Positions 1-34,366 of a stretch of DNA of 64,000 bases are shown here, piece after piece. Source of the DNA: an uncultured bacterium (lineage in GTDB: Bacteria; Electryoneota; Electryoneia; Electryoneales; Electryoneaceae); contig CAZIDZ010000003.1 of NCBI GenBank assembly GCA_964538455.1, positions 129,832 to 193,831 of the forward strand. Reading direction: 5' to 3'. The notes under the pieces are model-generated. The model was not told the origin of the DNA. It did no database searches and saw only the letters and a list, made by a program, of their open reading frames with translations. How positions within the stretch are numbered: position 1 is the first letter of the stretch; each line of letters begins with the position of its first letter. The position numbers and the translations under genes are program-made.

Positions 1-18
1 GTCCAGATAACGTGAGGA

Positions 19-1779
19 TTGCTGCTGTTGACGGAAGAAACGTCTTCAAGGATTCTCGTCATTGACGACGAGTTGAGCATCCGTGAAATGCTCGCCCAGG
101 CGCTGGAAATCGGCGGCTTTCGGGTGGAGACCGCCGTGGATGGGGAGGAGGGACTCGAAAAATTCAGCAAGGATCAGTCGTTCGACGTTATCCTCACAGA
201 CTTGATGATGCCCAAGGTCAACGGAATGCAGGTGCTTGAGCAGGTGAAAAAACTTGACCCCACCGTCGAATTGATTATGCTCACCGGTTTCGGCGGGAAT
301 GAATCCGCAATCGAGGCGATGAAGAAGGGCGCCTACGACTATCTGCTGAAACCGACGAATGTCGAAGAGCTGTTTATTACTGTGCAGAAGGCAATCGAAA
401 GGCGCCGCCTCTCCGAAGAGAACAGACAGTACCAGCGTAATCTCGAGCGTCTCGTCCGGGAGCGAACCCGCGAGCTCAGCGAGACGAAAAACTTCCTCCA
501 GTCGATCCTCGATTCATCGCTGGACTACTCGATCATCGCCACGGGACTGAACGGCGTCATCACGCTTTTCAACAAGGGCTCGGAACGGTTGACCGGGTTT
601 GTAGCCACTGACATGGAGGCGAAAAAGACGATCTATGACTTCGTCCCCGGACTCGAGGAACGCCTGAAAAAGACCGATGAGGACGGTCTCAAGCCTGTCA
701 AGGGGACGCCGAGGGAGACCGTGTGCACGATGCTGCGTGCCGACGGCAGGAGGGTGACCGTTTCGATGTCCATCGCCGCGTTGACCAACCAGAAGAAAAC
801 GGTTGTCGGTACGCTCTTTATTTCCAAGGATATCACTGCGCAGAAAGCGCTCGAACACCAATTGAAAAAGTACACCGAGAACCTCGAACAGATCGTCCAG
901 GAGCGAACGGAGGAGCTCGCACGGCGCAACGATGAGCTCGAAAGAACACTCAGTGAACTGAACGAAACGCAGCAGCAGCTGCTCCAGTCGGAAAAGCTGG
1001 CGAGCATCGGACAGCTGGCCGCCGGCGTCGCGCACGAAATCAACAATCCGATCGGTTTCGTGCACTCGAACCTGAGCAACCTGCAAAAATTCAACAGCAG
1101 GCTTCAGCGCCTGCTTAAGGAAATTCGAGCTTCGGTCAAGGGAGGCGGCCTCTCTGAAACCCGGTATGATCAGCTTTGGAAAGAGGCGAAGCTCGAAAAG
1201 CTGCTACCGGAGCTGGACACGATGATCATGGAATCCCTCGACGGCACCCAGCGTGTGCGGACGATCGTCAGCGATCTGAAGAATTTCAGTAACATTGACC
1301 GCGCACAGGTCCAGGATGCCGATCTCGAGGCGGGGCTGGAGAGCACCCTCAACATCGTCTGGAACGAAATCAAGTACAACGCCGAGGTCGAGAAGCAATA
1401 CTCTAAAATACCAACAGTTACATGCAATCCGCAGCAGTTGAATCAGGTGTTTCTGAATCTCCTGGTGAATGCGGCGCACGCTATCAAGGAACCCCCGGGC
1501 AAGATTATAATACGGACATTACGAATTGACCAGGACCGGGTGGCCGTCGAAATTCAGGACAACGGGGCGGGCATTCCGGAAGGCAACCGGAAAAAAATCT
1601 TCGACCCGTTCTATACGACGAAACCGATTGGAGAAGGTACGGGATTAGGTCTCTCGATCAGCTACCGCATTGTGAAGGATCATGGGGGTGAAATCGAGGT
1701 GGAGAGCCAAGTGGGTGAAGGAACGACTTTCCGTGTGATTCTCCCGATCAAGGGACCCATGAGCGAAGAGGTGGAGTAA
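19..1779 (+). CDS. Hybrid sensor histidine kinase (N-terminal receiver, PAS, HisKA, HATPase_c)
   Basis: The N-terminus has an REC fold (ILVIDDE...ILTDLMMP with the acceptor Asp). The middle looks PAS-like. The H-box is SEKLASIGQLAAGVAHEINNPIGFV, and the G-boxes are DNGAGIP and GTGLGLSI. The start is TTG at 19 or 28; an in-frame stop at 8-10 prevents any extension upstream. Confidence 0.85.
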   Translation: MLLLTEETSSRILVIDDELSIREMLAQALEIGGFRVETAVDGEEGLEKFSKDQSFDVILTDLMMPKVNGMQVLEQVKKLDPTVELIMLTGFGGNESAIEAMKKGAYDYLLKPTNVEELFITVQKAIERRRLSEENRQYQRNLERLVRERTRELSETKNFLQSILDSSLDYSIIATGLNGVITLFNKGSERLTGFVATDMEAKKTIYDFVPGLEERLKKTDEDGLKPVKGTPRETVCTMLRADGRRVTVSMSIAALTNQKKTVVGTLFISKDITAQKALEHQLKKYTENLEQIVQERTEELARRNDELERTLSELNETQQQLLQSEKLASIGQLAAGVAHEINNPIGFVHSNLSNLQKFNSRLQRLLKEIRASVKGGGLSETRYDQLWKEAKLEKLLPELDTMIMESLDGTQRVRTIVSDLKNFSNIDRAQVQDADLEAGLESTLNIVWNEIKYNAEVEKQYSKIPTVTCNPQQLNQVFLNLLVNAAHAIKEPPGKIIIRTLRIDQDRVAVEIQDNGAGIPEGNRKKIFDPFYTTKPIGEGTGLGLSISYRIVKDHGGEIEVESQVGEGTTFRVILPIKGPMSEEVE

Positions 1780-1782
1780 CAC

Positions 1783-3105
1783 ATGGATCAGACAAAAACA
1801 CTGCTCTTCGTCGACGACGAACCGAATATCCTCAGCGCGCTGAAGCGGGTGTTCATCGACGATGAATTTGAGGTTGTCACCGCCAATTCCGGCAAGGAGG
1901 CGCTGGGGATCTTCAACGATCGTGAGATTCAGTTGATCATCTCGGACCAGCGCATGCCGGAGATGAGCGGTTCCGAGCTGCTGGCCAAAATACGCGAATC
2001 CAAGCCGGAAGTCATGCGCATCATCCTCACCGGTTTCGCGGACATGGACGCCGCGGTCGACTCGATCAACAACGGCCAGATCTATCAGTTCATCTTCAAG
2101 CCGTGGAACGATGAGGAGCTCCGCTCCGTCGTCCTCCGCGCCCTCGAAGCCTTCGACCTGCAGCACGAGAACAAGCGGCTTCTTGTCGAGTTGCAAAAGG
2201 CCAACAAGGAACTCGAGGAGCTGAACGACCAGCTCGCGCACAAGGTGAAGGAGCGGACGGCGCTTATCGTCCAGAAAAACCTCGAACTTGGCAAGCTGAA
2301 CAAATCGCTGGAATCCGCCCTGGTCAGCACCGTACGGGTCTTCGTCAACCTGCTCGAACTGAGCCGCCCGGAGGTCAGCCGGCACGCGCGCCGCGTCGCC
2401 ACCCTCGCGACCACCTTTGCGAAGCAGATGGGGTGGGAGGAGAAGCGGATCCACGATATCGAGATCGCGGCCCTGCTCCACGACATCGGCAAAATCGGCA
2501 TCCCCGAGATCATCCTCCGCAAACCCAACGAGGATCTCTCGGACGGCGAGCTGAAAGCGTTGAACAACCACCCGATCCTCGGCCAGAACATGATCGGGGC
2601 GATCGACTCGTTCAATGCCATCGGCAAAATTATCCGCGCCCATCATGAACAGTGGGGCGGCAAGGGTTTCCCGGATGGGCTGAAAGGAGAGGACATTCCG
2701 ATCGAAGCCCGGTTGCTCGCGGTGTGCAACCAGTTCGACCATCTGAAGGAGGATGGGAAAAGCCGGCCCTTCGTCGAGAAGTATTTCCAGAACGCCTCGG
2801 GGGAGAGCTTCGACCCCAAAATGACCGCGATGATGCTTGACTTTATCGGCAGTGCCGCGGGCCTCAATGACAGCGGTGAGGAGGGAGCGGCGCGCGGAGG
2901 CGTCACTGTGGGGGGGCAGCGAAAGGTCAAAGTCCTTCCCAACGAGCTGAAACCTGGCATGGTGCTTGCAGACAACTTGATGACCGGAAAGGGCATCTTC
3001 CTCTTGCCCCAGGGGCAATTGCTCAAGGAAACCCACATCCGGTCCATCCAGGACATTCAGCGGGTCGATCCGATCAAAGGCTCGATTGAAGTCTTGGTGG
3101 ATTGA
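1783..3105 (+). CDS. Response regulator with HD-GYP phosphohydrolase domain (c-di-GMP phosphodiesterase-like)
   Basis: The receiver domain (LLFVDDEPNIL, IISDQRMP) is followed by HDIGKIGIP and HHEQWGGKGFPDGL. This is the HD-GYP signature with Tyr replaced by Phe. The stop overlaps the fliR start. Confidence 0.85.
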   Translation: MDQTKTLLFVDDEPNILSALKRVFIDDEFEVVTANSGKEALGIFNDREIQLIISDQRMPEMSGSELLAKIRESKPEVMRIILTGFADMDAAVDSINNGQIYQFIFKPWNDEELRSVVLRALEAFDLQHENKRLLVELQKANKELEELNDQLAHKVKERTALIVQKNLELGKLNKSLESALVSTVRVFVNLLELSRPEVSRHARRVATLATTFAKQMGWEEKRIHDIEIAALLHDIGKIGIPEIILRKPNEDLSDGELKALNNHPILGQNMIGAIDSFNAIGKIIRAHHEQWGGKGFPDGLKGEDIPIEARLLAVCNQFDHLKEDGKSRPFVEKYFQNASGESFDPKMTAMMLDFIGSAAGLNDSGEEGAARGGVTVGGQRKVKVLPNELKPGMVLADNLMTGKGIFLLPQGQLLKETHIRSIQDIQRVDPIKGSIEVLVD

Positions 3106-3917
3106 CGCAAGACGCTTCGAGGCAGCCGGTGGAAATTCTGAATTGGAATCTCGATCAGCTCGAGCGCTGGTTCCTGATACTTTTCCGCGTCGCCAGCATG
3201 CTGATGGTTTTTCCCCTCTTCGGGTACGCCAGTTTCCCAACCCTGGCGCGCCTTGTGGTGGCCTTCTTCATCGCCTCTCTGCTGCTTCCCATCTACGGAC
3301 CCACTACCGCGATCACGGCGGGGATGGGGGTGCTTTCGTTCTTCAGCATCGTCCTGCGTGAGGTGCTCGTCGGGCTCGCCATCGGCTTCTCCGCTCAATT
3401 CCTCTTCATCGGCGTGCAGTTCGCCGGGCACGTGATCGGCCGCACCATGGGTTTCGCGCTGATGAACGTCATCGATCCCCAGTCGCAGACCAGCGTTCCA
3501 CTCATCGGCCAGTTGATGCAGCTGTTCGTGCTGCTGCTGTTCCTGTTGATGAATGGCCACCATTTCCTGCTGCTCGCACTCGACGAGAGTTTCGTCCAAA
3601 TCCCTGTCGGCACTGGGCTTTTGACGGGACAGGGGATTGAGGGCATCGCCCGCCTCAGCGCGGATATCTTCGTCATCGGAATCAAGGTCGGCGCCCCCGT
3701 GCTGGTGGCGATTATGATCACCGAAGTGGGACTCGGAGTTGTCGCCAGAACCGTCTCCCAGATAAACGTATGGCTCGTCGGTTTCCCCTTGAAGATCGGC
3801 ATCGGACTGTTCACGCTCGCGCTGGCTCTGCCAATGATGGCGTACGTCTTCGGAAAACTGTACGCAGACTGGCAGGGCTCCCTGATCGATTTCATCCGGG
3901 CCATGGCTACGGGGTAG
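3102..3917 (+). CDS. fliR: Flagellar export apparatus protein FliR
   Basis: A 271-aa polytopic membrane protein. Its N-terminus (LERWFLILFRVASMLMVFPLFG) is typical of FliR, and it lies immediately upstream of flhB. Confidence 0.85.
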   Translation: MTQDASRQPVEILNWNLDQLERWFLILFRVASMLMVFPLFGYASFPTLARLVVAFFIASLLLPIYGPTTAITAGMGVLSFFSIVLREVLVGLAIGFSAQFLFIGVQFAGHVIGRTMGFALMNVIDPQSQTSVPLIGQLMQLFVLLLFLLMNGHHFLLLALDESFVQIPVGTGLLTGQGIEGIARLSADIFVIGIKVGAPVLVAIMITEVGLGVVARTVSQINVWLVGFPLKIGIGLFTLALALPMMAYVFGKLYADWQGSLIDFIRAMATG

Positions 3918-3923
3918 AGCTGC

Positions 3924-5003
3924 ATGCCAAAAGAGAACCAGGACGGATCGGAAAAAACCGAAAAACCAACGGCCCGCCGGATCAAGAAGGCCCGTGAGGA
4001 AGGGAATGTTGCGCGCAGCATGGAGGTCAATAGCGCGGGCGTCCTCACCGCGGGCATCGCCGCGCTGGTGCTCTTCGGTGGCTGGATGATGGAGCGCATG
4101 ACCACCCTGATGGTCTGGGTGTTCAAAAGCCTTGGCGAAATCGACGTCTCTCCCGCGTCGCTGCCCTCCTACATGAAAGACGGCGCCGAGTGGATGTTCC
4201 TCACCTTGATCCCGGTGCTCGCCTCGATCGCCGTCATGGGCATCGTCATCAATCTGATCCAGACCGGCCCCCTGTGGACGACGAAATCGCTCAAGTTCCG
4301 CTTCGACAAGCTGAATCCCGTCAGCGGGGCGAAAAAGCTGATCAACCAGCGCGCTTGGGTGCGCCTGTTGACGAATCTCGTCAAGGTGGTGATGATCGGG
4401 TACATCATTTTTCGGGTCATCAAGTCGTCCTGGCCGCAATTCGTACCCTTAATGGATTCCGAAATCCCCAATATCTTCCATTTCCTGATGCGAGAGGTGC
4501 TTAGACTTCTTTTATGGGGCTTATTCGCAATGATTATTATCGCAATCATCGACTTCACCTATCAAAAACATAAATATATCGAAGATCTGAAGATGACAAA
4601 GCAGGAGATCAAAGAAGAACGCAAAATGATGGAAGGTGATCCCCAGGTGAAGGGGAAGATCAGGCAGGTTCAGTTCCAACTCGCTTTCAATCGGATGATC
4701 AAGGAGTTGCCCAACGCGGACGTCGTCGTCACCAACCCGGTTCATGTTGCCGTCGCGTTGAAATACCGCGCGGAGGAGATGACTGCCCCAGTCGTCGTCG
4801 GCAAGGGGTTGCGCCTGCTCGCCGAACGAATCAAGAACATCGCCCGCGAAAATGATATCCCAATCGTTGAAAATCCGCCACTTGCACGTGCCCTCTACAA
4901 ACTCTGCGACGTGGGGGAGGAGATCCCCGGTCAATTCTACCAGGACGTTGCGGAAATTCTCGCCTACATATACCAGTTGCGCCAGGAACAATCGGTAGCA
5001 TAA
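3924..5003 (+). CDS. flhB: Flagellar export apparatus protein FlhB
   Basis: The N-terminus TEKPTARRIKKAREEGNVARS is typical of FlhB. There are 4 TM segments. The C-terminal domain has VVTNPVHVAVALKY, the autocleavage NPTH site in an NPVH form. Confidence 0.9.
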   Translation: MPKENQDGSEKTEKPTARRIKKAREEGNVARSMEVNSAGVLTAGIAALVLFGGWMMERMTTLMVWVFKSLGEIDVSPASLPSYMKDGAEWMFLTLIPVLASIAVMGIVINLIQTGPLWTTKSLKFRFDKLNPVSGAKKLINQRAWVRLLTNLVKVVMIGYIIFRVIKSSWPQFVPLMDSEIPNIFHFLMREVLRLLLWGLFAMIIIAIIDFTYQKHKYIEDLKMTKQEIKEERKMMEGDPQVKGKIRQVQFQLAFNRMIKELPNADVVVTNPVHVAVALKYRAEEMTAPVVVGKGLRLLAERIKNIARENDIPIVENPPLARALYKLCDVGEEIPGQFYQDVAEILAYIYQLRQEQSVA

Positions 5004-5074
5004 ACAGTCACTTACGCTCCGGCACAGGGCTTGCAAACTCTTCCGGGAACCCAACCTTGGAGTGAGTGCGCCCT

Positions 5075-7213
5075 ATGGCCGAAGCCCAGACAAAAGCCTA
5101 CCTATCGACGGAGCAACGTCTCGCCCAAGTACCTTGGCTTGATAAACTTACGAGTCGTGCGGACATCACCCTCGCGGTCGCCGCCGTAGGTGTCGTTGTC
5201 CTCATGATCATCCCGATCCCTCCGGGATTGCTCGATGTGCTGATTTCCTTGAACATCACCTTCGCGCTGATCGTGCTGATGGTCTCGATGTACACCGAGC
5301 GATCACTCGATTTCAGTGTATTCCCCGGACTGCTGCTGCTGCTCACCCTGTTCCGCCTCGGAATTAACGTGGCTTCAACGAGGATGATTCTCGGGTTCGC
5401 TTTCGCGGGAAAGGTCATTGCTGCTTTCGGCAGCTTTGTAGTTGCTGGCAGCTACATCGTCGGCATCGTCATCTTCACCATCCTCGTCGTGATCAACTTT
5501 ATGGTGGTTACCAAGGGTTCCGGTCGCATCGCCGAAGTGGCGGCGCGGTTCACCCTGGACGCCATGCCCGGCAAGCAGATGGCCGTGGACGCCGACATGA
5601 ACAACGGCCTGATTGATGAACATGAGGCCCGCAGGCGCCGCGATGACATCCGCCGTGAAGCCGATTTCTACGGCGCCATGGACGGCGCGGCGAAGTTCGT
5701 GCGGGGGGATGCCATCGCCGGCATCATCATCACCTTCGTCAACATCATCGGAGGCCTGTTGATCGGCGTCCTGCAGCGGAAAATGTCCTTTCCCCAGGCG
5801 ATGACGACGTACACGATCCTGACGATCGGCGACGGCCTGGTCAGCCAGATCCCCGCGCTGATCATCTCCGTCTCGGCGGGCATCATCGTCTCGCGCGCCG
5901 CCTCCGAGATGAACATGGGCCGGGAATTCGCGGGTCAGCTGTTGGTCCATCCGCGGGCCGGTTTCATCACCTCCGGGGTCCTGATGTTCTTCGCCCTCGT
6001 GCCGGGAATGCCCACCCTGCCGTTCCTTTTGCTCTCGCTGGTGACTGGGTACATTGCCTGGATGACGCGGCAATCGCGCAGGAAAACCGAGGAGACCGCA
6101 ATCGTTCAGGCACGCGTCCCGAAAGGCCATGAGGAAAAAATCGAAGACTACCTGTACGTGGATCCGATGGAGCTCGAAATCGGTTACGGCCTGATCCCGC
6201 TCGTTGACAAGGAGCAGGAGGGCGATCTGCTCAACCGGATCACGATGATCCGAAAGCAGCAGGCGATGCAGATGGGATTGGTGATCCCGCCGATTCGCAT
6301 TCGAGATAACATCCAGTTGAAGCCGAGCGAGTACGTGATCAAGATCCGCGGCAATGAGGTCGCCCGCGGCGAACTTCGTCTCGGCTACTATCTCGCTCTG
6401 AATCCCGGCACCGCGAACGGTAAGGTCGAGGGCGTCGCTACCAAGGAGCCGACCTACGGTCTGCCGGCGCTGTGGATCAACAAGAATGTCAAGGAGAAAG
6501 CCGAGAACTACGGCTATACGGTGGTCGAACCGACCGCCGTGCTCGCAACGCACCTCGTCGAGGTGATCAAGGCGAATGCACACAAGCTGCTGACACGCAA
6601 GGATGTAAACAATCTCATCGACAACCTGAAAGCGGACAATCCGACGGTCGTCGAGGAGCTGATCCCGAACATGATGACGGTGGGCGGAGTGCATAAGGTG
6701 CTGCAGAAGCTGCTCAAGGAATCGATCCCGATCCGGGACCTCGGAACCATTCTTGAGACGCTTGCGGATTATGCACCGATGTCGAAGGAACCCGATGTGC
6801 TGGTGGAGTACGTCCGCTATGCACTGGCGCCCACCATCACGCAAAAATTCCAGGACGAGGACGGGCATGTTTACGCCCTGACCCTCGATCCGGAAGTGGA
6901 ACAGGTGATTTCCGACGCTGCTCAGCAGGCGGGCCGGCAGGGCCACTTTGGAGTTGTCGATCTGCCTCCTCAGACTATCAACGCCCTCTACACCAGCCTG
7001 TCGAAGCAGGTCGAACGGATGACATCCGAGGGCCGGCAACCCCTGCTGATCACGTCGCCGACGGTCCGCCAGGCCTTCCGGCGGCTGACTGAGCCTGTTT
7101 TGCCGCAGCTCATCGTGCTATCTTACGGTGAGTTGTTGGTTAACGTTCAGGTCGATTCGATCGGTGTTGTCAGCTTGAATCCGGAGCAGGAGCAGAAGGC
7201 GGCCAAGGCGTAG
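5075..7213 (+). CDS. flhA: Flagellar export apparatus protein FlhA
   Basis: The conserved FHIPG-loop region (MVVTKGSGRIAEVAARFTLDAMPGKQMAVDADMNNGLIDE, FYGAMDGAAKFVRGDAIAG) is present, followed by a large cytoplasmic C-terminal domain. I prefer the ATG at 5075 over the GTG at 5066 because of Shine-Dalgarno spacing. Confidence 0.9.
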   Translation: MAEAQTKAYLSTEQRLAQVPWLDKLTSRADITLAVAAVGVVVLMIIPIPPGLLDVLISLNITFALIVLMVSMYTERSLDFSVFPGLLLLLTLFRLGINVASTRMILGFAFAGKVIAAFGSFVVAGSYIVGIVIFTILVVINFMVVTKGSGRIAEVAARFTLDAMPGKQMAVDADMNNGLIDEHEARRRRDDIRREADFYGAMDGAAKFVRGDAIAGIIITFVNIIGGLLIGVLQRKMSFPQAMTTYTILTIGDGLVSQIPALIISVSAGIIVSRAASEMNMGREFAGQLLVHPRAGFITSGVLMFFALVPGMPTLPFLLLSLVTGYIAWMTRQSRRKTEETAIVQARVPKGHEEKIEDYLYVDPMELEIGYGLIPLVDKEQEGDLLNRITMIRKQQAMQMGLVIPPIRIRDNIQLKPSEYVIKIRGNEVARGELRLGYYLALNPGTANGKVEGVATKEPTYGLPALWINKNVKEKAENYGYTVVEPTAVLATHLVEVIKANAHKLLTRKDVNNLIDNLKADNPTVVEELIPNMMTVGGVHKVLQKLLKESIPIRDLGTILETLADYAPMSKEPDVLVEYVRYALAPTITQKFQDEDGHVYALTLDPEVEQVISDAAQQAGRQGHFGVVDLPPQTINALYTSLSKQVERMTSEGRQPLLITSPTVRQAFRRLTEPVLPQLIVLSYGELLVNVQVDSIGVVSLNPEQEQKAAKA

Positions 7214-7256: not shown

Positions 7257-8531
7257 ATGATCATTAAAAAATTCATCGCGGATACGATGAACGAAGCCCT
7301 GGCCCAAATCAAGCAGGAGCTGGGGGAGGATGCTGTCATCCTGCAGTCGCGCAGAGTGGAAAAACCCGGACTGCTCGGCGGAAAACAGCAGGTGGAGGTG
7401 ACCGCCGCCACTCCGGACCGCCACCCGGCGCCTCCCCGCGGCAGAAAGCCTCTGGTGAACGAAAGCATGCGCCGTTCCCTCGAGGGCGGGATCGTTCCGC
7501 CACCCGCGCGCCGGCAACCGCTCGGCACCAGGCGGTACAACCGTCCTGACGCCGCCCGCTCCGAGAAACAGCCCCCTGAGGCCGCTCCCTCGCCGGACGT
7601 CGAGGGGATGGAGATGGAAATCCGCGACCTGCGGAAAACCGTTGAAGATCTCGCGTCCCATCTGAAAAGCCAGGAATCCCCGGATGTCCCCGAAGTTCTC
7701 AAACGCGCCTGGAGCGATCTGGTCGCGAACGATGTTTTCAAGGCCACGGCAACGGATCTCGTCGTCGAACTCAGCAGCCGGTTGACTCCTGAACAGCTGC
7801 CCGATGGGGATCTCGTCGAATCGCGGCTGCATGACCTGATCGCTGAAAAATTCCGCATCGCCAGGCAGCGCGGGGCGTTGCGCAGCGAAAACCGCCCGCG
7901 CGCAATCGCCTTGATCGGGCCGACCGGTGTGGGCAAGACGACGACCCTGGCGAAGATGGCGACCAACAGGAAGGTGTTCGGCGAGGCGGATGTCGCGCTC
8001 GTCTCAACAGACACCTATCGCGTCGCCGCCGTGGAACAACTCAAGACCTTCGCCAGCATCGCGGGGATTCCGATGGACGTTGTCTACCGTCCTGAGGAGC
8101 TGGCGCGTTCTCTGGACCGGCACCGGAAGCGCGATGTGATTTTGATCGACACGGCGGGCAGGAGCCAGAATGACCGCGAGGCGCTCAGCGAACTGAAAAC
8201 GTTCATGAACGCCGCGCCGATTGATGAGGTCGTCCTCGTGATGGCCGCCAACACCCGCATCGAGGATCAGCGCCAGATGGTCGAGCGCTTTTCTTCCATT
8301 CCGGCCAACCGTGTGATCATCACGAAATTGGATGAAGCCACCTCGGCGGGCCACCTGCTCGAGATGTCGCGGCTGCTCCCGCGAGGGTGGAGCTTCTTGA
8401 CCACCGGCCAGAATGTGCCGGATGACATCACCGCCGCCGATGAGCTGTTGCTCGCCGCGATGGTCGCCAAGAAAGACTATTTCGAGCAGCTGAGGTCCAA
8501 CGGATTCCGCCTGCCGACGGCGGCCGAATAA
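7257..8531 (+). CDS. flhF: Flagellar biosynthesis GTPase FlhF (SRP-type)
   Basis: The N-terminus MIIKKFIADTMNEALAQIKQELGEDAVIL is FlhF-like. The G1 box is IALIGPTGVGKTT, with DTAGR and TKLDE motifs. Confidence 0.85.
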   Translation: MIIKKFIADTMNEALAQIKQELGEDAVILQSRRVEKPGLLGGKQQVEVTAATPDRHPAPPRGRKPLVNESMRRSLEGGIVPPPARRQPLGTRRYNRPDAARSEKQPPEAAPSPDVEGMEMEIRDLRKTVEDLASHLKSQESPDVPEVLKRAWSDLVANDVFKATATDLVVELSSRLTPEQLPDGDLVESRLHDLIAEKFRIARQRGALRSENRPRAIALIGPTGVGKTTTLAKMATNRKVFGEADVALVSTDTYRVAAVEQLKTFASIAGIPMDVVYRPEELARSLDRHRKRDVILIDTAGRSQNDREALSELKTFMNAAPIDEVVLVMAANTRIEDQRQMVERFSSIPANRVIITKLDEATSAGHLLEMSRLLPRGWSFLTTGQNVPDDITAADELLLAAMVAKKDYFEQLRSNGFRLPTAAE

Positions 8532-8624: not shown

Positions 8625-9500
8625 GTGACACGGGATCAGGCATCGACTCTTCGTACGCAGAACGGTGATCGTGCAAAAAGGAAGGATCGCGCCTTGCGAG
8701 CACGCCGCATTGCCGTAACGAGCGGCAAGGGAGGCGTTGGCAAGTCGAACGTCAGCCTCAACCTGGCGATCGCGCTCGCCCGCATGGGCCGCCGCGTGCT
8801 GCTCGTCGATGCCGATACAAACCTCGCGAACATCGATATCCTGCTCGGCATCCAGGCGCGGCTCACCCTCGCGGACGCCATCTTCGGAGATGCGTTCTTC
8901 GGGGATATCCTGCTCGAGGGTCCCGATGGGATCGCCATCCTTCCCGGATCGAGCGGCGTTGTTGAAATCATGGAGGAAGACGCTGCCGTTCGCCAGAAAA
9001 TGTTCGACGCGTTCGATGATCTCGAACGCCGATTCGACGTGCTGCTGATCGACACCGGGGCGGGTCTATCCGAAAATGTGCTCCATTTCGTGGCTGGCGC
9101 GGACGATGTCGTGCTGGTGACGAATTCCGAGCCGACCTCGATCACCGATGCCTACGCCATGGTCAAGGTGGCAACCCACATGAATCCGGCGCTCAAGCTG
9201 CAGGTCGTTGTCAACCTGGCGGCCAAGGAACAGGATGCGAAGGACACGTTCGAAAAGCTCCAGTTGGCCGTGCGGAATTTCCTCAGCGTCGATATCGAAA
9301 TGCTGGGCTTGCTGCCCGCGGACAAGAACGTGCTGGCGGCCGTCAACCAGCGGCAGCCGTTTCTCACTCTGTTCCCGAAAAGCGCGGCATCGACGGCGAT
9401 CATGCTGATGGCGCACAAGCTGATGCGCCGCACCCAGGCGCCGTCGGAGGACAGCGAAAACCTCGCCCGCAGAATCTATGACAAGATGGGTGGCGCATGA
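8625..9500 (+). CDS. flhG: MinD/ParA-family ATPase FlhG (FleN/YlxH)
   Basis: It carries the deviant Walker A (IAVTSGKGGVGKS) and LLVDAD, and follows flhF as in polar flagellar loci. The start is GTG. Confidence 0.85.
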   Translation: MTRDQASTLRTQNGDRAKRKDRALRARRIAVTSGKGGVGKSNVSLNLAIALARMGRRVLLVDADTNLANIDILLGIQARLTLADAIFGDAFFGDILLEGPDGIAILPGSSGVVEIMEEDAAVRQKMFDAFDDLERRFDVLLIDTGAGLSENVLHFVAGADDVVLVTNSEPTSITDAYAMVKVATHMNPALKLQVVVNLAAKEQDAKDTFEKLQLAVRNFLSVDIEMLGLLPADKNVLAAVNQRQPFLTLFPKSAASTAIMLMAHKLMRRTQAPSEDSENLARRIYDKMGGA

Positions 9501-9928
9501 CTCCGGGATGGAAGCAAGTCGCGAAAGCGTTCGGTTTTGTCCTGCTGTTCGGCATTATCGCGTGGAACCTCTACGTCGGGGCCGGTGTCTTCAACGCGAT
9601 CTTCCGCGGCCTCGTCGCCTGGCTGATTTTCCAGATCCTCAACATCGTCCTCACCAACGTCGTCGTCCGCCAATTGTCCGAGTACGAATACAAACGGTTG
9701 CGCCAGCTCGCGGAAGAGGAGGAGATGGAGGAGATGCAGCAGGCGCAGAACAACGTCGCCCTCGATGAGGACATCAGTGAGGCGAGCGAACAGGCAAAGG
9801 CGAGAACCGCGGCGCCCGCACCCGAAACCGCCAGGGAAACCGCCCCGGGCGAAGAAACTGCCTCCAGGGAAGAGCCCGCATCCAGCGAAAAGGAAGCCGA
9901 GGGTGAAAAGAGCGGAGACACTGGATGA
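9497..9928 (+). CDS. Small hypothetical membrane protein (2 TM + acidic tail)
   Basis: The start codon overlaps the flhG stop (ATGA) and the stop overlaps the fliA start (ATGA). There are two hydrophobic helices followed by a Glu-rich C-terminus. I saw no recognisable family. Confidence 0.5.
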   Translation: MTPGWKQVAKAFGFVLLFGIIAWNLYVGAGVFNAIFRGLVAWLIFQILNIVLTNVVVRQLSEYEYKRLRQLAEEEEMEEMQQAQNNVALDEDISEASEQAKARTAAPAPETARETAPGEETASREEPASSEKEAEGEKSGDTG

Positions 9929-10716
9929 CGATGCCTGAAATGGCCAGCATGCAGGATGACCAACTCTGGGGCCTGTGGGTGAAGTCGCCCGAGCAACAGG
10001 TCAAGGATGAGTTGGTTATTCGTTATTTGCCCCTCGTCGAACAGGTGGCGGGACGGATGAAGATCGGCCTCCCCGACTCCGTCCAGGTCGACGAGTTGGT
10101 CAATTCAGGAATCATCGGCCTCATCGGCGCAATCGACAATTTCGACCCCTCCCGGGGCTTCAAATTCGAAACCTACGCCGTCAACCGGATCCGCGGCTCC
10201 ATTCTCGACAGTCTTCGCGATTATGACTGGATGCCCCGCTCGATCCGCTCGAAAACACGTTCCCTGGAAACCGCCCTCGTGCGGCTCGAGGGGGAGCTGG
10301 GACGCGTCCCAAGCGATGACGAGGTAGCCGCCGCCCTTGATCTCGATATGGAGGCCTACTTCGCGCTGATCGACGAAGTGAAGGTCGCCAGCATTCTCTC
10401 CCTCGACCAGCCGATCACAGGTTCTGAGGGGGAAACGACATCCCTCAGTGAAATGCTCGAAGATGACGAAGGAGAGAATCTTTCGGACCGAGTGGAATGG
10501 CTTGAGGCGAAGGAAGTCGCAAAACGAATGATTTCGCAACTAAAACAGCAGGAAAGGCTGATTATTGCGCTATATTACTATGAAGAACTGACTTTACGTG
10601 AAATTGGTGAAGTTCTGGGCATCAGCGAATCACGAGTTTCTCAAATACACAGCAGAATTATTCTCACCCTCAAGGGTAAACTTCGCAGTTTGTACGACGA
10701 TAAGAGTCGTGAGTGA
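9925..10716 (+). CDS. fliA: Flagellar sigma factor FliA (sigma-28)
   Basis: It has sigma-70 region 2 (GLIGAIDNFDPSRGFKFETYAVNRIRGSI), region 3, and region 4 (LTLREIGEVLGISESRVSQIHSR). The 263-aa size is typical of FliA/WhiG. Confidence 0.85.
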   Translation: MTMPEMASMQDDQLWGLWVKSPEQQVKDELVIRYLPLVEQVAGRMKIGLPDSVQVDELVNSGIIGLIGAIDNFDPSRGFKFETYAVNRIRGSILDSLRDYDWMPRSIRSKTRSLETALVRLEGELGRVPSDDEVAAALDLDMEAYFALIDEVKVASILSLDQPITGSEGETTSLSEMLEDDEGENLSDRVEWLEAKEVAKRMISQLKQQERLIIALYYYEELTLREIGEVLGISESRVSQIHSRIILTLKGKLRSLYDDKSRE

Positions 10717-10731
10717 CCGGAGGCTGATCGC

Positions 10732-11094
10732 GTGGTCAAACCGATTTACCTGCAAGACAATCTCAGCAAGGCGCCGCTCGCCCAGATCTATCAGGACCTG
10801 GAAAATCCGGGCGCCGAACGCCTTCGTGACCTCCATCGGATGATCACGCTCCGCGAGCAGGAGCGCGCCGAGCAGGAGCAGGCGCCGAAAATGGAGGAGC
10901 GCCCGGGGACAGTGGCGATTCACCCGGACGGATCCTCCCGGGGCCGCGGAGGACGGCAACAGACCGCGTCCAAACGCGCAAAAGGCGCGCAGGGCAAAGC
11001 GAAAGCCGGTCCCGGTGAACGTGAAAACGACCTTCGCTTCCGCCGTCCGGATGACGACAAAGGGAAGGGCGATAAACTGGATCTCGAAGGGTAG
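10732..11094 (+). CDS. Hypothetical protein (basic/charged, 120 aa)
   Basis: The ORF starts at GTG directly after fliA and has biased composition. I saw no motif, so it is retained only for its position and length. Confidence 0.3.
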   Translation: MVKPIYLQDNLSKAPLAQIYQDLENPGAERLRDLHRMITLREQERAEQEQAPKMEERPGTVAIHPDGSSRGRGGRQQTASKRAKGAQGKAKAGPGERENDLRFRRPDDDKGKGDKLDLEG

Positions 11095-11098
11095 CCGG

Positions 11099-12814
11099 AT
11101 GAGGGCTGAGAGCGCACAGAATAGCTTTCGCAGGTCGCGACGGGAGATTGCTTCGCGTCTCGCGCTTCTGCTGCTCGCGTTCTCTATCCCTGCGGCATCC
11201 GCCCTCGCGAACCGCCTCGTATCCGCGAGCGTCGGGACACGCAACAGAAATTCTTCGCTGCTCGTCCTCAAGTTCGACGTTCCCACGCAGCTCACCCTCG
11301 GCGGGCGAGAGGGGAGGTCAATCGTCCTCTCCGGCGGCAGCGTCCAGCAGGGTCCTGAGTCGTTCCACGCTTCGGGCCTGATCCGCAACCTGCGCGTTCA
11401 AGGCGGTGATATCGTCGTCGATGCGACCCGCTATGTCCGGGCACGCATGACTTCCGCCGGGGCAGGCATCTACCTCATCGTGCTGGAATCCGCGAAGGAG
11501 CCAGCGAACGCTCAACCGCAGCGTGCGACCCCCTCGACGCCCGAAGTGACCAAAACCGGGCAGCAGGCGCAACCCGCCGTCGAACGGTCGGAAAAACCGG
11601 TCAAGACGGCGCTGGCGGAACCGGAAAAGGAGCAACCCGTTGAACGGCAGGAAACTGCTCCTCCACCTCAAGTAACACCGCAGACAACGGAGCCTAGCAC
11701 CCCTCAAACTCAGGAGTTCCAAACCTACCAACCGGATCTGACGCAGACCCAGGCCGGGTTCAGGAAGACCCTCGCCGATCTCTATGAGTGGGTTCCCGTG
11801 CATCCGGTCGTGCTGCCGACGACCGTGCAGTTCGCGCTGGAATTGTCGCAGCAGGGCAACCGGGACCGCGCGATTCTGCTGCTCGAATCGATCAAGCCGG
11901 AAGAACCCGAATTTGGCTGGAGTCGTATCGCTCTCGGCCGGATGATGGAGCAGGTCGGAGATTACAACAAAGCCCTCGACTACTACCGTGAGGCGCTCAG
12001 CGACCGCGAAACGGAGGGCGTAGCCGCGGTTCGGATCGCTCTCGCGTTCCAGGCCGTCGGCAACCGAACCGCTTCCGTGGGGCTGTGGGAGCGCGTGCTC
12101 GACATGAACCAGGGACAGATCTACGTCGAACCGTCCGAGATGCCCCAACCGCGCGCTGAACCTTCATCTTACGCGATGCAGACCCCGGCGGAACCCGTCG
12201 CCATCAGCCCGCAGGAACCTTCGACGCCCACGGAGCAGCCTCCCTCCACGGATACCACCGCGGAGTTGAACGCTTCCGCCGGAAAATCCGGTAAGGCCGC
12301 CGAACCGAAGAAAAACACATTCTCCTTCGTCCGTCTCTGGCCGTTCGCCATCGGATTCATCGCGCTCTCCGCGTTGCTCTATTTCGTCCTCAGCCGCTTG
12401 AAAAAGCGCCCCAGTGCCAAGGAATACGACATCCACCAGGATATGGCGAACCTCGGCCTCGATATCGAACTTGACGAAGAGCCCGAGCCCGCCGCCGGGC
12501 CGCGTGTGGCGGATATGTACGCCGCCCAGTCCGGCGAGGCTGCTCCGGAACCCGAAGAGGGGGTCGAACAGCACGAAGAGAAACCTGCCGGTGAGGGAGA
12601 AGAGGAAGAGCAGGAGGATGTCCAGCTCAATGAGATACCGGAACCGAACGATTTGAACATTGACACCAATGATTTCGATCTGAGCGACGACAAGGTAGCT
12701 CAAGTCCGCGAGATGCACGCTCAGGGCGCAACCGTGCGCGAAATTGCTGAAGAACTTGGAATTGGACAGGATGAAGTGCGCATGGCCATCCGCCTCGCCG
12801 AAGCCGGCCAATAG
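11099..12814 (+). CDS. Hypothetical secreted/membrane protein: signal peptide, beta-rich N-domain, Pro/Thr/Gln linker, TPR-like helices, one TM helix, acidic tail, C-terminal sigma-70 region-4-like HTH
   Basis: The start is taken at ATG 11099, after the stop of the previous ORF. The signal peptide is LALLLLAFSIPAASALA and the TM segment is WPFAIGFIALSALLYFVL. The C-terminus ATVREIAEELGIGQDEVRMAIRLAEAG resembles sigma region 4.2. Confidence 0.55.
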   Translation: MRAESAQNSFRRSRREIASRLALLLLAFSIPAASALANRLVSASVGTRNRNSSLLVLKFDVPTQLTLGGREGRSIVLSGGSVQQGPESFHASGLIRNLRVQGGDIVVDATRYVRARMTSAGAGIYLIVLESAKEPANAQPQRATPSTPEVTKTGQQAQPAVERSEKPVKTALAEPEKEQPVERQETAPPPQVTPQTTEPSTPQTQEFQTYQPDLTQTQAGFRKTLADLYEWVPVHPVVLPTTVQFALELSQQGNRDRAILLLESIKPEEPEFGWSRIALGRMMEQVGDYNKALDYYREALSDRETEGVAAVRIALAFQAVGNRTASVGLWERVLDMNQGQIYVEPSEMPQPRAEPSSYAMQTPAEPVAISPQEPSTPTEQPPSTDTTAELNASAGKSGKAAEPKKNTFSFVRLWPFAIGFIALSALLYFVLSRLKKRPSAKEYDIHQDMANLGLDIELDEEPEPAAGPRVADMYAAQSGEAAPEPEEGVEQHEEKPAGEGEEEEQEDVQLNEIPEPNDLNIDTNDFDLSDDKVAQVREMHAQGATVREIAEELGIGQDEVRMAIRLAEAGQ

Positions 12815-20845: not shown

Positions 20846-23800
20846 ATGCCGGACAAGCGTGACCTGAACCGAGACGCCGCTGAATTTGCTTCGCGTTTTA
20901 CGGAGAGCAGCCCGGAAGAGAGCTCCGGGGACAGCGTTCAAAATGTGCTCATCCTTGCCCACGCGATCCCCACGCTGGCGAGCATCGGAGAGAAAAAGCG
21001 GGCTACGGACGCCGCGTTGAAGCTGCTCCGGATGCGCGACGATCGCGGTGGCTGGGATGACCCCTTACCCACGGTGATCGCTCTGGAAGCGTTCGTCGCC
21101 CTCCGGCTGCGTGGAATGGACCTGGACGATGGCCCGCAGGCTGTCGAGTACGCCGTCCGTTTTCTCCGCGATTCACGCCCGCTGGAGCTGCTCGAGCATG
21201 AGCTTCGCCTCGCGCGCAGCCTCGTTCTCGCTGGGTTGGCAAGGCAGGACGCGGCATTGATCGACGCCGGACTGCTCCGCGCACGATCGGCGCTCGAAAA
21301 AGAGCCGCGCTGGTCCCGCGACCTCGATATCGCCCTGCACGGCCTGCTCGCGGTCGCCGACCTGGTTACGATCACAAAGGACTCCACGACCGAGCAGCTG
21401 ATCTCGAGGCTGCTCGCTGAACACCACCTCGATCAGCCGGAACCGGAAGGGATCGAGGCGCAATCGGTGGCGGTGCTCGCCCGCGCGGGAACCGTGCTCG
21501 AAAAACTGGGCAGGCGCGACGCGGCGGTGGCCATGTACAAAAGAGCCGTGGAAAGCGCCGATGCCGCTTCCCTTGACACCGCTTCGCTCAAGTTCCGGGT
21601 GGAGTTGGGGGTGCGCATCTTCGGTGAGCCCGGTGATCAAGGCGGCGCGGGCGAAATCCCCGCGGGCGGCGAACAACCGGACCAAACGGAGCAGCAGACA
21701 GCGGAGCTGAAACCGGTGAGGTATGACGAGCTGCCTGCGGAGGCGACGTTCAATCGCTCCTCGGTCAGTGCGGTCATTCTCCAGAACGGACCCGCTGAAT
21801 CGGTGATCCAGACCCTGGAAGACCTCGCCGCGCAAACCGAACTGCCGGAGCAGATCGTCATCCTCTGGACCTCTCCCTCGTCACGCGCGCAGCTCCCCGA
21901 CCTGCCCACCGATCTCGCCGAGATTCACGGCGCCTTTGGATGGGGTGAATCCCCCTGGAGACTGGCGTTCCAGGTGGCACGGGCCGACTGGGTCTGGATG
22001 ATCCCCTCCGGCGTGCGCATCCTGCCGGACACCCTGATGGCGCTGAAACAGTCCGGCGGCCGCAAGCAGGCCATCTGCCTCTCGAAAAAAGAAGGCGGCC
22101 TCGACAAGGCCTTCGCTGGTCTCGTCGCGGAACCCACCCTCGCTGCGGAACGGTGCCTGATCAGGAGAGACGTTGCAGCTCACCTGCGTACTCCCCGGGC
22201 GAATGGGAGTTTCTGGGATATTGCGGCGTCCGTGGGAGAAAGGGAAGACTGGCGCGAGGTCGTGGAGAATGGCGAAGTGGGCATTCAGCCGGTCGAACAG
22301 GGTCTCGAATCCCTGCTCGCCGCCGTTCACTCCCTCGCCGGCCACTACCGGCTCTTCCCGGTGGACGGTCCCGAGCAGCGAAAACTGCGCCACGACAGCG
22401 CCGCGCGGTTGCGTGACGAACTCTACCGCGCCTGCCAGGAATGGGAACAGCCTCTCGTTTCGGTGATTCTCGCAGGCTCCACGTCCGGCGGGTCGCTGGA
22501 AAAATCCTTCAGTTCGCTGCTGCGCAACACTCAGGAAATCCCCTTTGAGGTAATCGCGATCCTGCCCGCCGGGGTGGACCTTTCCTTGCGGAATGCGATG
22601 CTCGACGCCGGGGTGCTCATCGTCCCCGGTTCCGAGATCCCGACCGCGGATCTCAACCGCGCCGCCGCCAAGGCGAAGGGACAGATGCTGGTGATCCTCG
22701 AAGCCGGAAGCGAGCCGGAAGAGGGGTGGCTGCAGGCGATGATGGCCGCCGCGTTCGACGAACCAAACGCCGGAATCGTCGGCGGCCTGGTGCAAAGCCC
22801 GGCGATGACCATCCTTCACGCCGGGATTGCCTTCGACGACAGAGCGAATCCGATTTACCTCCACCAGGGCGCGCCGCTCGTCCTCAGCCATATCCATCGC
22901 CGCAGGGCATACCAGGCGGTGGGAGGGGGGATCGTCCTGGCCTCCAGACCGCTTTGGGAGCTGCTTCGCGGACTCGATGAGGGATTCGACGACGCCGTGG
23001 AAAACGCCCTGATCGATTTCTGCCTGCGCGCCCGCGAGAAGGATGTTCGAGTCATCTATGAACCGAAGGCAAAAGCCACCCATCACGTCTCGCAGCCATC
23101 CGCCCCAGAAGCGAACCGGCATTTCATCAAGAAATGGCGGGATCGGGTCGTTCCCGACGTCGAATTGTACGCCCGGATGGACGGCTACCGCGCGGAATCC
23201 AGGGAGCGAAGAATCGTCCTGGTTCCCATCGGACCCACGCTCAAAGCAAACGGGGAGGAGGCCATGAGCAGCTCCTCAACTTCGACACCGTCCCATGTCA
23301 TCAAGGCCGATTCGTCGGACAACGATCTGGCGTCCCTGCTCACCCGTGCTGAAACGCTGATGCGTGACGGGCGTTATGACATCGCCGAGGAGGCCTTGGT
23401 ACAGGGGCAGCACCAGGTGAACGGAAATGTGGGCGCCCGGGTGATCTACTGGACGCTGCTAGGCGACAGCAAATTCCGGCTGAACAAGACCGAAGACGCC
23501 TACGATTGCTACAAGAAGGCCGTGAAGGACGATCCGAGTGCGGAACGCGCCTGGATCGGAATCGCTACCTATCACCTGGTCAAGGGCGAACTCGAGAAAG
23601 CGGAAGACATATTCCGCCGCGTAATCTCGCTCAACGATTCGAGCACTCGCGGCTACCTCGGGCTGGGCAACGTCTATCTCCGCCGCGGCCAGCCCGGTGA
23701 CGCGCTCCCCAGCTTCGTCGAAGCCTCCCGCCTCGATCCCGGCTACCGTCCGACGGTTGTCGGCCTCGTCGCCGCCGCCGTCCAGGCGGAACAGATGCAG

Positions 23801-24004
23801 GAGGCGCTGACCCCGTTGCAGCAGTACCTGCAAATTCATCCCGAGGACAACGAGGCTCGTTTCCACTACGCCGCGATCCTGTTCGGCAACCAGGACAACG
23901 CGCACGCGAAAGAAGAAGCGATGAGGGTGCTCCGGGTGAAACCCGATCACCAGGGAGCGCGCGAACTGCTCGACAACCTGTCCCGGAACAGGGATGCATC
24001 CTGA
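20846..24004 (+). CDS. Large multidomain protein: N-terminal helical-repeat region, two GT-A (family 2-like) glycosyltransferase domains, C-terminal TPR repeats
   Basis: The GT2-like cores are VSAVILQNG.. and PLVSVILAGS..DDAVENALIDFCLRAREKDVRVIYEP. The C-terminal TPRs follow WTLLGDSKFRLNKTEDAYDCYKKAVKDDP. Its 10 nt gap to flgL is the basis for the block being co-transcribed with flgKL. Confidence 0.75.
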   Translation: MPDKRDLNRDAAEFASRFTESSPEESSGDSVQNVLILAHAIPTLASIGEKKRATDAALKLLRMRDDRGGWDDPLPTVIALEAFVALRLRGMDLDDGPQAVEYAVRFLRDSRPLELLEHELRLARSLVLAGLARQDAALIDAGLLRARSALEKEPRWSRDLDIALHGLLAVADLVTITKDSTTEQLISRLLAEHHLDQPEPEGIEAQSVAVLARAGTVLEKLGRRDAAVAMYKRAVESADAASLDTASLKFRVELGVRIFGEPGDQGGAGEIPAGGEQPDQTEQQTAELKPVRYDELPAEATFNRSSVSAVILQNGPAESVIQTLEDLAAQTELPEQIVILWTSPSSRAQLPDLPTDLAEIHGAFGWGESPWRLAFQVARADWVWMIPSGVRILPDTLMALKQSGGRKQAICLSKKEGGLDKAFAGLVAEPTLAAERCLIRRDVAAHLRTPRANGSFWDIAASVGEREDWREVVENGEVGIQPVEQGLESLLAAVHSLAGHYRLFPVDGPEQRKLRHDSAARLRDELYRACQEWEQPLVSVILAGSTSGGSLEKSFSSLLRNTQEIPFEVIAILPAGVDLSLRNAMLDAGVLIVPGSEIPTADLNRAAAKAKGQMLVILEAGSEPEEGWLQAMMAAAFDEPNAGIVGGLVQSPAMTILHAGIAFDDRANPIYLHQGAPLVLSHIHRRRAYQAVGGGIVLASRPLWELLRGLDEGFDDAVENALIDFCLRAREKDVRVIYEPKAKATHHVSQPSAPEANRHFIKKWRDRVVPDVELYARMDGYRAESRERRIVLVPIGPTLKANGEEAMSSSSTSTPSHVIKADSSDNDLASLLTRAETLMRDGRYDIAEEALVQGQHQVNGNVGARVIYWTLLGDSKFRLNKTEDAYDCYKKAVKDDPSAERAWIGIATYHLVKGELEKAEDIFRRVISLNDSSTRGYLGLGNVYLRRGQPGDALPSFVEASRLDPGYRPTVVGLVAAAVQAEQMQEALTPLQQYLQIHPEDNEARFHYAAILFGNQDNAHAKEEAMRVLRVKPDHQGARELLDNLSRNRDAS

Positions 24005-24031
24005 CCGCCTGTCTTGCGAAAGGAGGGCAGG

Positions 24032-25474: not shown

Positions 25475-25776
25475 GTGAAATGAACCTGGACACGGAGGTG
25501 GCGGCTGCTGCGGAAAGCAGCCTCGGCCGTCCAGACAGCGGTGTGAGACGTGTGACGACGACCCCGTGGGCCGTGTTCGTCCACGCCTCGCCGGTCTACA
25601 TCACGAGCGATCAACCGTCCCGTCCTCGCCGTGGGCGTCCCGCGTCCCATCGAAATGTCGCGCACAATCGCCGCGGGATGCGGTTGCCCGATGATTACCC
25701 CTACGCGAATCGCCGTTGGAGCGAACGACTCCGTGTGCTGCGCGCGGTTCGTCACGATGCGGGAGAACTGTCATGA
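25471..25776 (+). CDS. Possible small basic protein, translationally coupled on both ends
   Basis: Its ATG overlaps the upstream stop (ATGA), and its TGA overlaps the downstream ATG (ATGA). It is Arg/Pro-rich with no motif, so it could instead be a frame artefact in a 300 bp spacer. Confidence 0.25.
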   Translation: MSEMNLDTEVAAAAESSLGRPDSGVRRVTTTPWAVFVHASPVYITSDQPSRPRRGRPASHRNVAHNRRGMRLPDDYPYANRRWSERLRVLRAVRHDAGELS

Positions 25777-33761: not shown

Positions 33762-34366
33762 ATGTGATTGTGGATGGCAAACCGGTCGAGCTGCCTGCGG
33801 AGGGGCAGAAGACGATCGGCGACGTCGTCGGGTCCGTGTCCAAGGATCTGGACGCGAAACGGCGGATCATCAAGGTGGTCGTCGACGGCCAGGACATCAC
33901 CGGTCAGGCGGAGGCCCATCTGCAGAGCAGGAGCGGCGGCGAAAAGGTCGAGATCACGACGGGCCTGGCCAGCGAACTGGCGCTCGAAACTCTGGACGGG
34001 ATCCGGGATTTCCACGGTGCGCTCGAGTTGGAGTTGAACCGCACCGCGGACGAATTCCGGATGGGTAACAACCAGAAATCCAACGAGATGTTCGCCCGCT
34101 GCCTGGATGGATTGCAGATCCTGCTGCGCACAACGGTTTCCGTCGCCAACCTGCTGCAGGTCGACAGCGCCAAGGTGAAAGCGGGATCCGGCAACATGAA
34201 TGCGGTCACCGAAAACATCGCCCGCGTCCTCCAGGAGTTGATCGAGGCGCAGATCAATCGGGATGCGATTCTGATCGCCGATCTGATCGAGTACGAACTT
34301 AAACCTCTGTTGGACGATTGGCAGGACGCCCGAGAACAGCTCCGGCTGATCGGAAAGGCGGCCTGA
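33758..34366 (+). CDS. Hypothetical protein (beta-rich N-terminus + helical C-terminus), last-but-one gene before flagellin promoter
   Basis: The ATGA overlaps the upstream gene. I saw no known motif. Confidence 0.5.
   Translation: MNVIVDGKPVELPAEGQKTIGDVVGSVSKDLDAKRRIIKVVVDGQDITGQAEAHLQSRSGGEKVEITTGLASELALETLDGIRDFHGALELELNRTADEFRMGNNQKSNEMFARCLDGLQILLRTTVSVANLLQVDSAKVKAGSGNMNAVTENIARVLQELIEAQINRDAILIADLIEYELKPLLDDWQDAREQLRLIGKAA

Follow-up and report, generated by a model that had tools for sequence, protein, structure and literature searches.

The window, as we call the whole 64,000-nucleotide stretch of contig CAZIDZ010000003.1 analysed here, opens on the forward strand with a two-component pair, a histidine kinase gene and an HD-GYP response regulator gene, set between the flagellar export genes fliQ and fliR. 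Only the end of fliQ lies inside the window, as its last four codons (V-Q-I-T) and a TGA stop at 1..15, recognised from the FliQ C-terminus and from a DNA match to the closest relative found, a contig of a metagenome-assembled genome (MAG) whose regulator is 79% identical to that of the window. FliQ of this relative ends ...YVAQIT*, and its DNA, gcacagattacgTGAggattc, aligns with window positions 1-21, gtccagataacgTGAggattg, so the window begins four codons ahead of the fliQ stop. The kinase gene (REC-PAS-HisKA-HATPase_c by Pfam, 583-586 residues) occupies 28..1779, or begins at TTG 19 if the longest open reading frame (ORF) is taken, and the regulator gene (REC/HD-GYP by Pfam and NCBIfam NF053512, 440 residues) occupies 1783..3105. 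The fliR gene follows at 3129..3917, with the longest ORF beginning at TTG 3102; its product matches Pfam Bac_export_1 (1e-61) and TIGR01400 (190.1 bits, cut-off 168.6), and it sits within fliPQR-flhBA, with flhB 6 nt on.

The original prediction held that the pair had displaced fliP and fliQ. The 15-nt fliQ remnant and synteny with relatives, from which the window's upstream gene content is inferred, instead place fliP and fliQ immediately upstream of the kinase. Looking up the window regulator and the protein P0001 by exact sequence returned no entry. The order fliP-fliQ-kinase-regulator-fliR-flhB-flhA recurs in 12 of 12 readable related loci (L002-L008, from species-representative genomes, and L014, L015 and L097-L099), giving 13 syntenic loci with the window. 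In the closest relative the full order is flgE-flbD-motA-motB-fliL-fliM-fliN-fliO-FapA-fliP-fliQ-kinase-regulator-fliR-flhB-flhA-flhF-flhG-x-fliA. The syntenic regulators range from 79% down to 42% identity with the window copy, and the seryl-tRNA synthetases (SerRS) of the relatives' genomes are about 62-82% identical to that of the window, whose nearest named relatives by SerRS are Calditrichota/Calditrichia MAGs (54-65%), Candidatus Electryonea (56%) and Kryptonia (53%). Judged by these comparisons, the pair entered between fliQ and fliR long ago and has been stably inherited since, in an uncultured lineage of the Fibrobacteres-Chlorobi-Bacteroidetes (FCB) group near Calditrichota. GC content, 0.54-0.60 in the insert and 0.53-0.63 in its flanks, gives no clear sign of recent transfer. 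The same block holds a second non-core insertion, a FapA/DUF342 gene (PF20250 and PF03961, about 500-550 residues) found between fliO and fliP in every relative (5608-7176 in L001/L002; also L003-L008, L014, L015 and L097-L099), upstream of the window edge.

A flagellar context was found in 13 of 14 cases examined in the orthologous clade. Homologues of about 40% identity stand in unrelated settings, such as a type IV pilus/MshE/PilZ-sigma-54 region or beside a type IX secretion system (T9SS) peptidase, and none of 80 metagenome paralogue loci lies near a flagellar export gene; the scan behind the latter figure was made with receiver-domain peptide patterns, and all that it returned were paralogues of at most 50% identity, so that it serves as a negative control only. 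The flagellar link is therefore specific to the orthologous clade.

The start of fliR had been thought to overlap the stop of the HD-GYP gene, which would couple their translation. This is true only of the longest ORF, from TTG 3102. The residue matching GTG 3129 (V-E-I-L-N-W-N...) is where homology to FliR sets in at every related locus, and in the window this codon is preceded by GAGG at 3118-3121. The gap between the regulator stop and the fliR start measures 23, 21, 15, 11, 23, 23, 24, about 185 and -1 nt across loci, and in L006 and L007 an in-frame stop 3' of the regulator's own stop makes an overlap impossible. Overlap-based translational coupling to fliR is not supported by these alignments and probably rests on the wrong start codon. 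TTG 28 is the more likely start of the kinase, rather than TTG 19, because GAGGA lies at 14-18 and the L002 kinase starts at the equivalent codon. The suggestion that the pair shares a transcript with the export-gate genes has fared better. The gaps in the window are 12 nt between fliQ and the kinase, 3 nt between kinase and regulator, 23 nt between regulator and fliR and 6 nt between fliR and flhB, and in several loci the kinase and regulator genes lie 2-3 nt apart or overlap. Between these genes there is no forward-strand terminator-like site and no convincing promoter match. Such short gaps (3-23 nt), with no terminators, lead us to infer a single transcript, and co-transcription of kinase and regulator with the export-gate genes is well supported at this level.

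The kinase ORF (19-1779) encodes, as predicted, a receiver-containing PAS histidine kinase, with Pfam matches to Response_reg (4e-28), PAS_9 (1e-7), HisKA (2e-5) and HATPase_c (1e-27). The protein consists of a receiver (REC, acceptor Asp58), a coiled coil, the PAS domain, a DHp domain (dimerization and histidine phosphotransfer) with His336 in the H-box AHEINNP, and a catalytic ATP-binding (CA) domain; it has no membrane segment and is cytoplasmic. The H-box His, the HATPase_c domain and the acceptor Asp of a HisKA-type kinase with an N-terminal receiver are all present, and the H-box also carries the H-E-x-x-N phosphatase signature. Across the orthologues the receiver (DD, Asp58, T, K), the coiled coil, the H-box AAGVAHEINNPIGF and the catalytic domain are conserved. 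The PAS domain is cleanly absent in 4 of the 13 loci (L014, 4691-5986; L015, 4689-6008; L097, 2706-4004; L099, 2697-3983), where kinases of 428-439 residues retain REC, DHp and CA only. The sensory domain is therefore dispensable for the role of the pair, and the constant kinase core is REC-DHp-CA. This suggests that the kinase may be controlled through phosphorylation of its own receiver, by another donor or by itself, with PAS as an additional input that is optional. The kinase receiver shares 34% identity with that of the regulator. The two genes adjoin in 13 of 13 syntenic loci, which fits the view that the kinase is the regulator's probable partner in a cognate pair.

The regulator ORF (1783-3105) likewise has the predicted content, with Pfam matches to HD_5 (2e-36), with HD, and to Response_reg (1.6e-23), and its best matches among solved structures are V-cGAP3, PmGH and PA4781. 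An AlphaFold2 model built from 66 sequences (mean predicted local distance difference test score, pLDDT, 93.5) comprises a receiver (1-110), a long helix of 85 residues (110-194), the HD-GYP domain (196-362), a disordered linker (364-376) and a C-terminal alpha/beta module (377-440). The receiver has the DD pair, the phospho-acceptor, T and K (D11, D12, D55, T83 and K106), and with a full-length HD-GYP domain and its loop the protein has the features of the RpfG family. In that loop, HHExxDGxGYPxxxxxxxI, D281 is replaced by G and Y285 by F in PmGH numbering, and I294 is kept. The regulator also scores 425.7 bits, with a cut-off of 400, against NCBIfam NF053512, 'response regulator c-di-GMP phosphodiesterase, NosR family' (c-di-GMP, cyclic di-GMP), residues 7-433 covering positions 1-418 of a profile of 422, so that the whole architecture, including the C-terminal extension, falls within a curated family. 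Neither the scanned window ORFs nor the gene tables obtained for relatives contain a NosP/FIST gene. As far as the profile and these gene tables go, membership in the NosR family holds at the level of sequence family only.

Can the window regulator hydrolyse c-di-GMP? The GFP-variant motif HHEQWGGKGFPDGL lies, as originally noted, at residues 287-300 (2641..2682, forward strand) and, in alignment with PmGH, PA4781 and V-cGAP3, includes H287, H288, E289, G292 (PmGH D281) and F296 (PmGH Y285). The Phe had been taken to leave catalytic competence open, but it is no sign of incompetence. PA4781 reads HHERWDGRGFPEGL, also a GFP variant, and with its receiver phosphorylated it hydrolyses both c-di-GMP and pGpG (PMC3774798); the PmGH replacements G284A, Y285A and P286A barely affect activity (PMC4159591); and among the 120 closest family members the GYP Tyr position is Phe in 66 and Tyr in 46. 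The Phe is uninformative on activity. There are better grounds on which to leave competence open, namely the replacement of D305 by N, of D281 by G and of D183 by R. PmGH has eight metal ligands, E185, H189, H221, D222, H250, H276, H277 and D305, and also needs D183, K225 and D308 for activity (PMC4159591). The window regulator keeps seven of the eight, as E197, H201, H233, D234, H263, H287 and H288, together with K237 (K225) and D319 (D308), and so is far from lacking metal-binding residues entirely. At the D305 position it has Asn316 (2728..2730, forward strand) and at the D183 position Arg. G292 occurs in 2 of the 120 family members and is nearly unique to the window genome, the closest relative having Asp. 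Asn at the D305 position occurs in 7 of 7 syntenic orthologues that look catalytically intact and in 44 of the 120 family members. The D305A and E185A mutants of PmGH retain activity, though it is impaired (PMC4159591). The window regulator may still hydrolyse c-di-GMP; on these alignments full competence cannot be asserted.

The His/Asp set is kept in 7 of the 13 syntenic regulators (the window copy, L002-L004 and L097-L099), and 6 of the 12 related ones (L005-L008, L014 and L015) lack at least three of H189, H221, D222, H250, H276, H277 and D308. The losses follow at least two different patterns. In L005-L008, H189 is replaced by E/D, H221 by S/L, D222 by N, H276 by Q, H277 by D and D308 by F; in L014, H189 by R, D222 by E, K225 by L, H250 by D, H276 by M, H277 by K and D308 by F; and in L015, H250 by L, H276 by M and H277 by N. 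With such replacements these six regulators cannot, to judge from the alignment, hold a metal centre. They still keep the gene, its position, the adjoining kinase, the five receiver residues, the E-x-x-D-G-x-G-x-P...I loop and the C-terminal module, and the receiver residues DD, D, T/S and K are present in every syntenic orthologue. Mean pairwise identity is 63% in REC, 57% in the C-terminal module, 54% in the helix, 45% in HD-GYP and 11% in the linker; by this measure, of all the folded parts of the regulator, the catalytic domain is under the least constraint. Because metal sites have been lost in six orthologues while the receiver, the GYP loop and the C-terminal module are kept, the lineage-wide role is probably phosphorylation-controlled and non-catalytic. 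On this conservation pattern, what the gene's retention in the flagellar operon needs is phosphorylation, and in half the genomes it needs no hydrolysis. The earlier suggestion of a c-di-GMP sensor rather than a hydrolase therefore stands in part: the six metal-less orthologues argue for a non-hydrolytic role, but the window copy may still hydrolyse.

The C-terminal module is an unnamed alpha/beta unit of about 62 residues (2911..3102, forward strand; LKPGMVLA...GKGIFLLPQGQLL...VDPI...V), seen in the AlphaFold2 model and in a profile search. Its pLDDT is about 95 within the whole-protein model and 84.8 for the module modelled by itself. Pfam has no match to the C-terminal 90 residues of the regulator even at E = 10, and the module was not found described in a survey of HD-GYP domains (bioRxiv 10.1101/2021.11.05.467447). 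A profile search returned 3,869 cluster representatives at E <= 1e-3, almost all of them REC/HD-GYP proteins, about 430 residues long, that carry the module C-terminally. Small stand-alone proteins (P0243 and P0245) have it twice in tandem, and a 539-residue HD-GYP protein (P0320) has three N-terminal copies. On this distribution, the module is a widespread, mobile accessory domain of HD-GYP proteins. DUF3391 was considered and set aside, as Pfam gives no match and Bd1817 is not among the fold matches. Against solved structures Foldseek gave no match below E = 0.1; its weak resemblances of the module to small RNA-polymerase domains (E > 0.28) were rejected as a functional lead, and the weak 32-34-bit matches of two stand-alone tandem relatives to Pfam Arc_PepC are a hint only.

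Several characterised proteins show how such a regulator could be placed. Like the RpfG-family proteins PA4781 of Pseudomonas aeruginosa and TM0186 of Thermotoga maritima, the window regulator has REC followed by a full-length HD-GYP domain, and it shares the GFP variant with PA4781, in which the receiver gates access to the active site (PMC3774798). It differs from that family in its extra conserved C-terminal module, its Asn at the D305 position and its location in a flagellar export operon, and its orthologues differ in the frequent loss of the metal site. It also shares features with NosR of the Burkholderia NosP-NosK-NosR nitric-oxide pathway, through the full-length NF053512 match above cut-off and through the kinase, whose H-box has the same H-E-I-N-N as is reported for NosK (PMC12570481). 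What defines that system is control of NosK by the haem/FIST sensor NosP, and NosR carries HG-GTP and is likely a non-catalytic HD-GYP regulator (PMC12570481). In contrast, the window pair has no adjacent NosP/FIST gene, its kinase has REC and PAS inputs, its neighbours are fliQ and fliR, and its regulator reads HD and GFP where NosR reads HG and GTP. DvhD of Desulfovibrio vulgaris (PDB 9rbz), which has SQ for HD and MN for HH and binds c-di-GMP as a metal-free receptor, is a model for the degenerate orthologues (PMC13090378). It also has Asn at the D305 position, as the window regulator does. Unlike that regulator, DvhD is a dCache-PAS membrane protein from an adhesin-release system; it is not a response regulator and has no flagellar link. 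HnoD inhibits an EAL enzyme (bioRxiv 10.1101/2021.11.05.467447), and RpfG acts on GGDEF proteins through its GYP loop (bioRxiv 10.1101/2021.11.05.467447; PMC4159591). By analogy, DvhD, NosR, HnoD and RpfG offer plausible modes of action for non-catalytic HD-GYP regulators.

We favour, with a probability of about 0.5, a reading in which the pair would be a cognate, co-transcribed phospho-switch whose non-catalytic output, common to the lineage, tunes motility while the flagellum is being built. The ancestor of this Calditrichota-related lineage would have acquired the two genes at the site between fliQ and fliR, and they would then have been retained. The kinase would integrate a cytoplasmic cue through PAS with phosphorylation of its own receiver and would phosphorylate Asp55 of the regulator, from which the signal would reach the HD-GYP domain and the C-terminal module by way of the long dimerising helix. 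The output would be binding of c-di-GMP or pGpG, protein-protein contact through the GYP loop and the C-terminal module, or both, setting the motility state during flagellar building. The window copy might also act as a c-di-GMP/pGpG phosphodiesterase, gated by phosphorylation and probably slow. Several points weigh against this reading. Gene position alone is no proof of a flagellar target, and one of the close homologues (P0021, 48% identity) is not part of a flagellar cluster. The active site is almost complete in the window copy and in six orthologues, where hydrolysis may matter. Among the window ORFs there is no PilZ, GGDEF or EAL gene, and thus no c-di-GMP effector or cyclase. Foldseek comparison of the module with solved structures gave a best E of 0.29 and no functional lead. 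Practical impact is limited as well, since all carriers found are uncultured.

The E. coli flagellar regulon includes an EAL enzyme, PdeH, that keeps c-di-GMP low. The window regulator might act in a comparable way, as an active, phosphorylation-gated c-di-GMP phosphodiesterase holding c-di-GMP low during flagellar assembly and use, which we regard as possible though distinctly less probable than the phospho-switch. E197, H201, H233, D234, K237, H263, H287, H288 and D319 are all in place in the window copy, PA4781 is active with the same GFP variant (PMC3774798), PmGH retains activity with D305A and with mutations of its GYP motif (PMC4159591), and the dependence on a phosphorylated receiver is what is found among RpfG-family enzymes (bioRxiv 10.1101/2021.11.05.467447). 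However, every intact-looking orthologue has Asn for D305, and no characterised enzyme has Asn there; D183, essential in PmGH, is Arg; and six metal-less orthologues retain gene, position, receiver and C-terminal module. Since those six cannot bind metals, hydrolysis cannot be what holds the gene at this locus throughout the lineage.

FlgS of Campylobacter is a soluble kinase that senses completion of the export gate or MS ring, and the insertion of the pair exactly inside the fliPQR-flhBA block in 13 genomes, with a kinase free of membrane segments whose PAS is dispensable in 4 of 13 loci, and with a regulator most conserved in its non-catalytic parts, would suit an assembly checkpoint of this kind. 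The kinase would report the assembly state of the gate, and the regulator would be a phosphorylation-controlled adaptor on the scaffold of a c-di-GMP enzyme, with catalysis now optional, docking through its C-terminal module and GYP loop on FliR, FlhB, FlhA, FlhF or FlhG. Both the checkpoint and this adaptor role appear doubtful to us: the argument for them is purely positional, thousands of HD-GYP proteins without a flagellar link carry the same C-terminal module, and FlgR is a sigma-54 activator, which the output here is not. The FlgS/FlgR checkpoint acts through a sigma-54 enhancer-binding protein, whereas the window regulator has no Sigma54_activat or HTH domain by Pfam. Least probable of all, and in our view improbable, is that the pair is an unrelated passenger, a two-component system lodged in a permissive intergenic site with a role unconnected to flagella. 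Its homologues of about 40% identity do live in unrelated neighbourhoods, and the operon accepts another insertion, FapA between fliO and fliP, but the pair has kept its place across a deep clade (SerRS about 63% identical), independent promoters would not fit in gaps so short, and the context is flagellar in 13 of the 14 orthologous-clade cases.

Beyond fliR, the first 10.7 kb of the window form a single forward-strand gene array of flhB (3924-5003), flhA (5066-7213), flhF (7257-8531), flhG (8625-9500), a 143-residue ORF without a family match (9497-9928) and fliA (9925-10716), the named genes assigned by Pfam scan, and the order flhB-flhA-flhF-flhG-ORF-fliA is the same in all relatives. The 143-residue product has a hydrophobic N-terminal half and an acidic tail, its ORF overlaps both flhG and fliA by 4 nt, and its position is kept in the relatives tested, at 29-62% identity. 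After fliA comes a 599-residue protein (11015-12814, forward strand), found at the same position in L001, with a weak TPR match, a C-terminal DUF6115 match and a long Pro/Glu-rich low-complexity middle. The cluster goes on downstream of fliA with flgF, flgG, flgA, flgH, flgI, flgJ, flgN, flgK and flgL, and beyond flgL with a TPR protein and a glycosyltransferase block, then flagellin, fliD and fliS. The block between flgL and flagellin (20846-34366, forward strand), a 1052-residue TPR protein and five large glycosyltransferase genes (GT9, GT1-like, DUF3880), is probably a flagellin glycosylation island. Further on, the ORFs for the electron-transfer (60502-61314) and catalytic (60929-62248, longest ORF) subunits of dihydroorotate dehydrogenase B, both on the forward strand, overlap by about 385 nt as listed, and the true start of the catalytic subunit is probably downstream of the listed GTG. 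An Rfam scan of the window found no riboswitch and no other RNA.

The component kinds described here are already known, as is the presence of signalling genes inside flagellar clusters. In Xanthomonas, three sensor genes (XCV1982-1985) lie between fliR and flhB (PMC3826837). The window insert differs from these and from PdeH in that it parts fliQ from fliR, brings a complete kinase-regulator pair, has HD-GYP in place of GGDEF/EAL, and belongs to a Calditrichota-like lineage. A literature search of incomplete coverage did not find a kinase-regulator pair between fliQ and fliR described. What is new is a complete kinase/HD-GYP pair parting fliQ from fliR across a deep lineage, the repeated decay of the metal site at one fixed locus, and the unnamed C-terminal module of the regulator. 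The fliPQR unit can thus be parted by regulatory genes and stay so across a deep lineage, and the regulator points to a widespread, unnamed module of about 60 residues on HD-GYP proteins. With one HD-GYP regulator at a fixed locus ranging from a near-complete enzyme to clearly dead forms, this lineage would offer a useful series on the non-catalytic role of the HD-GYP domain.

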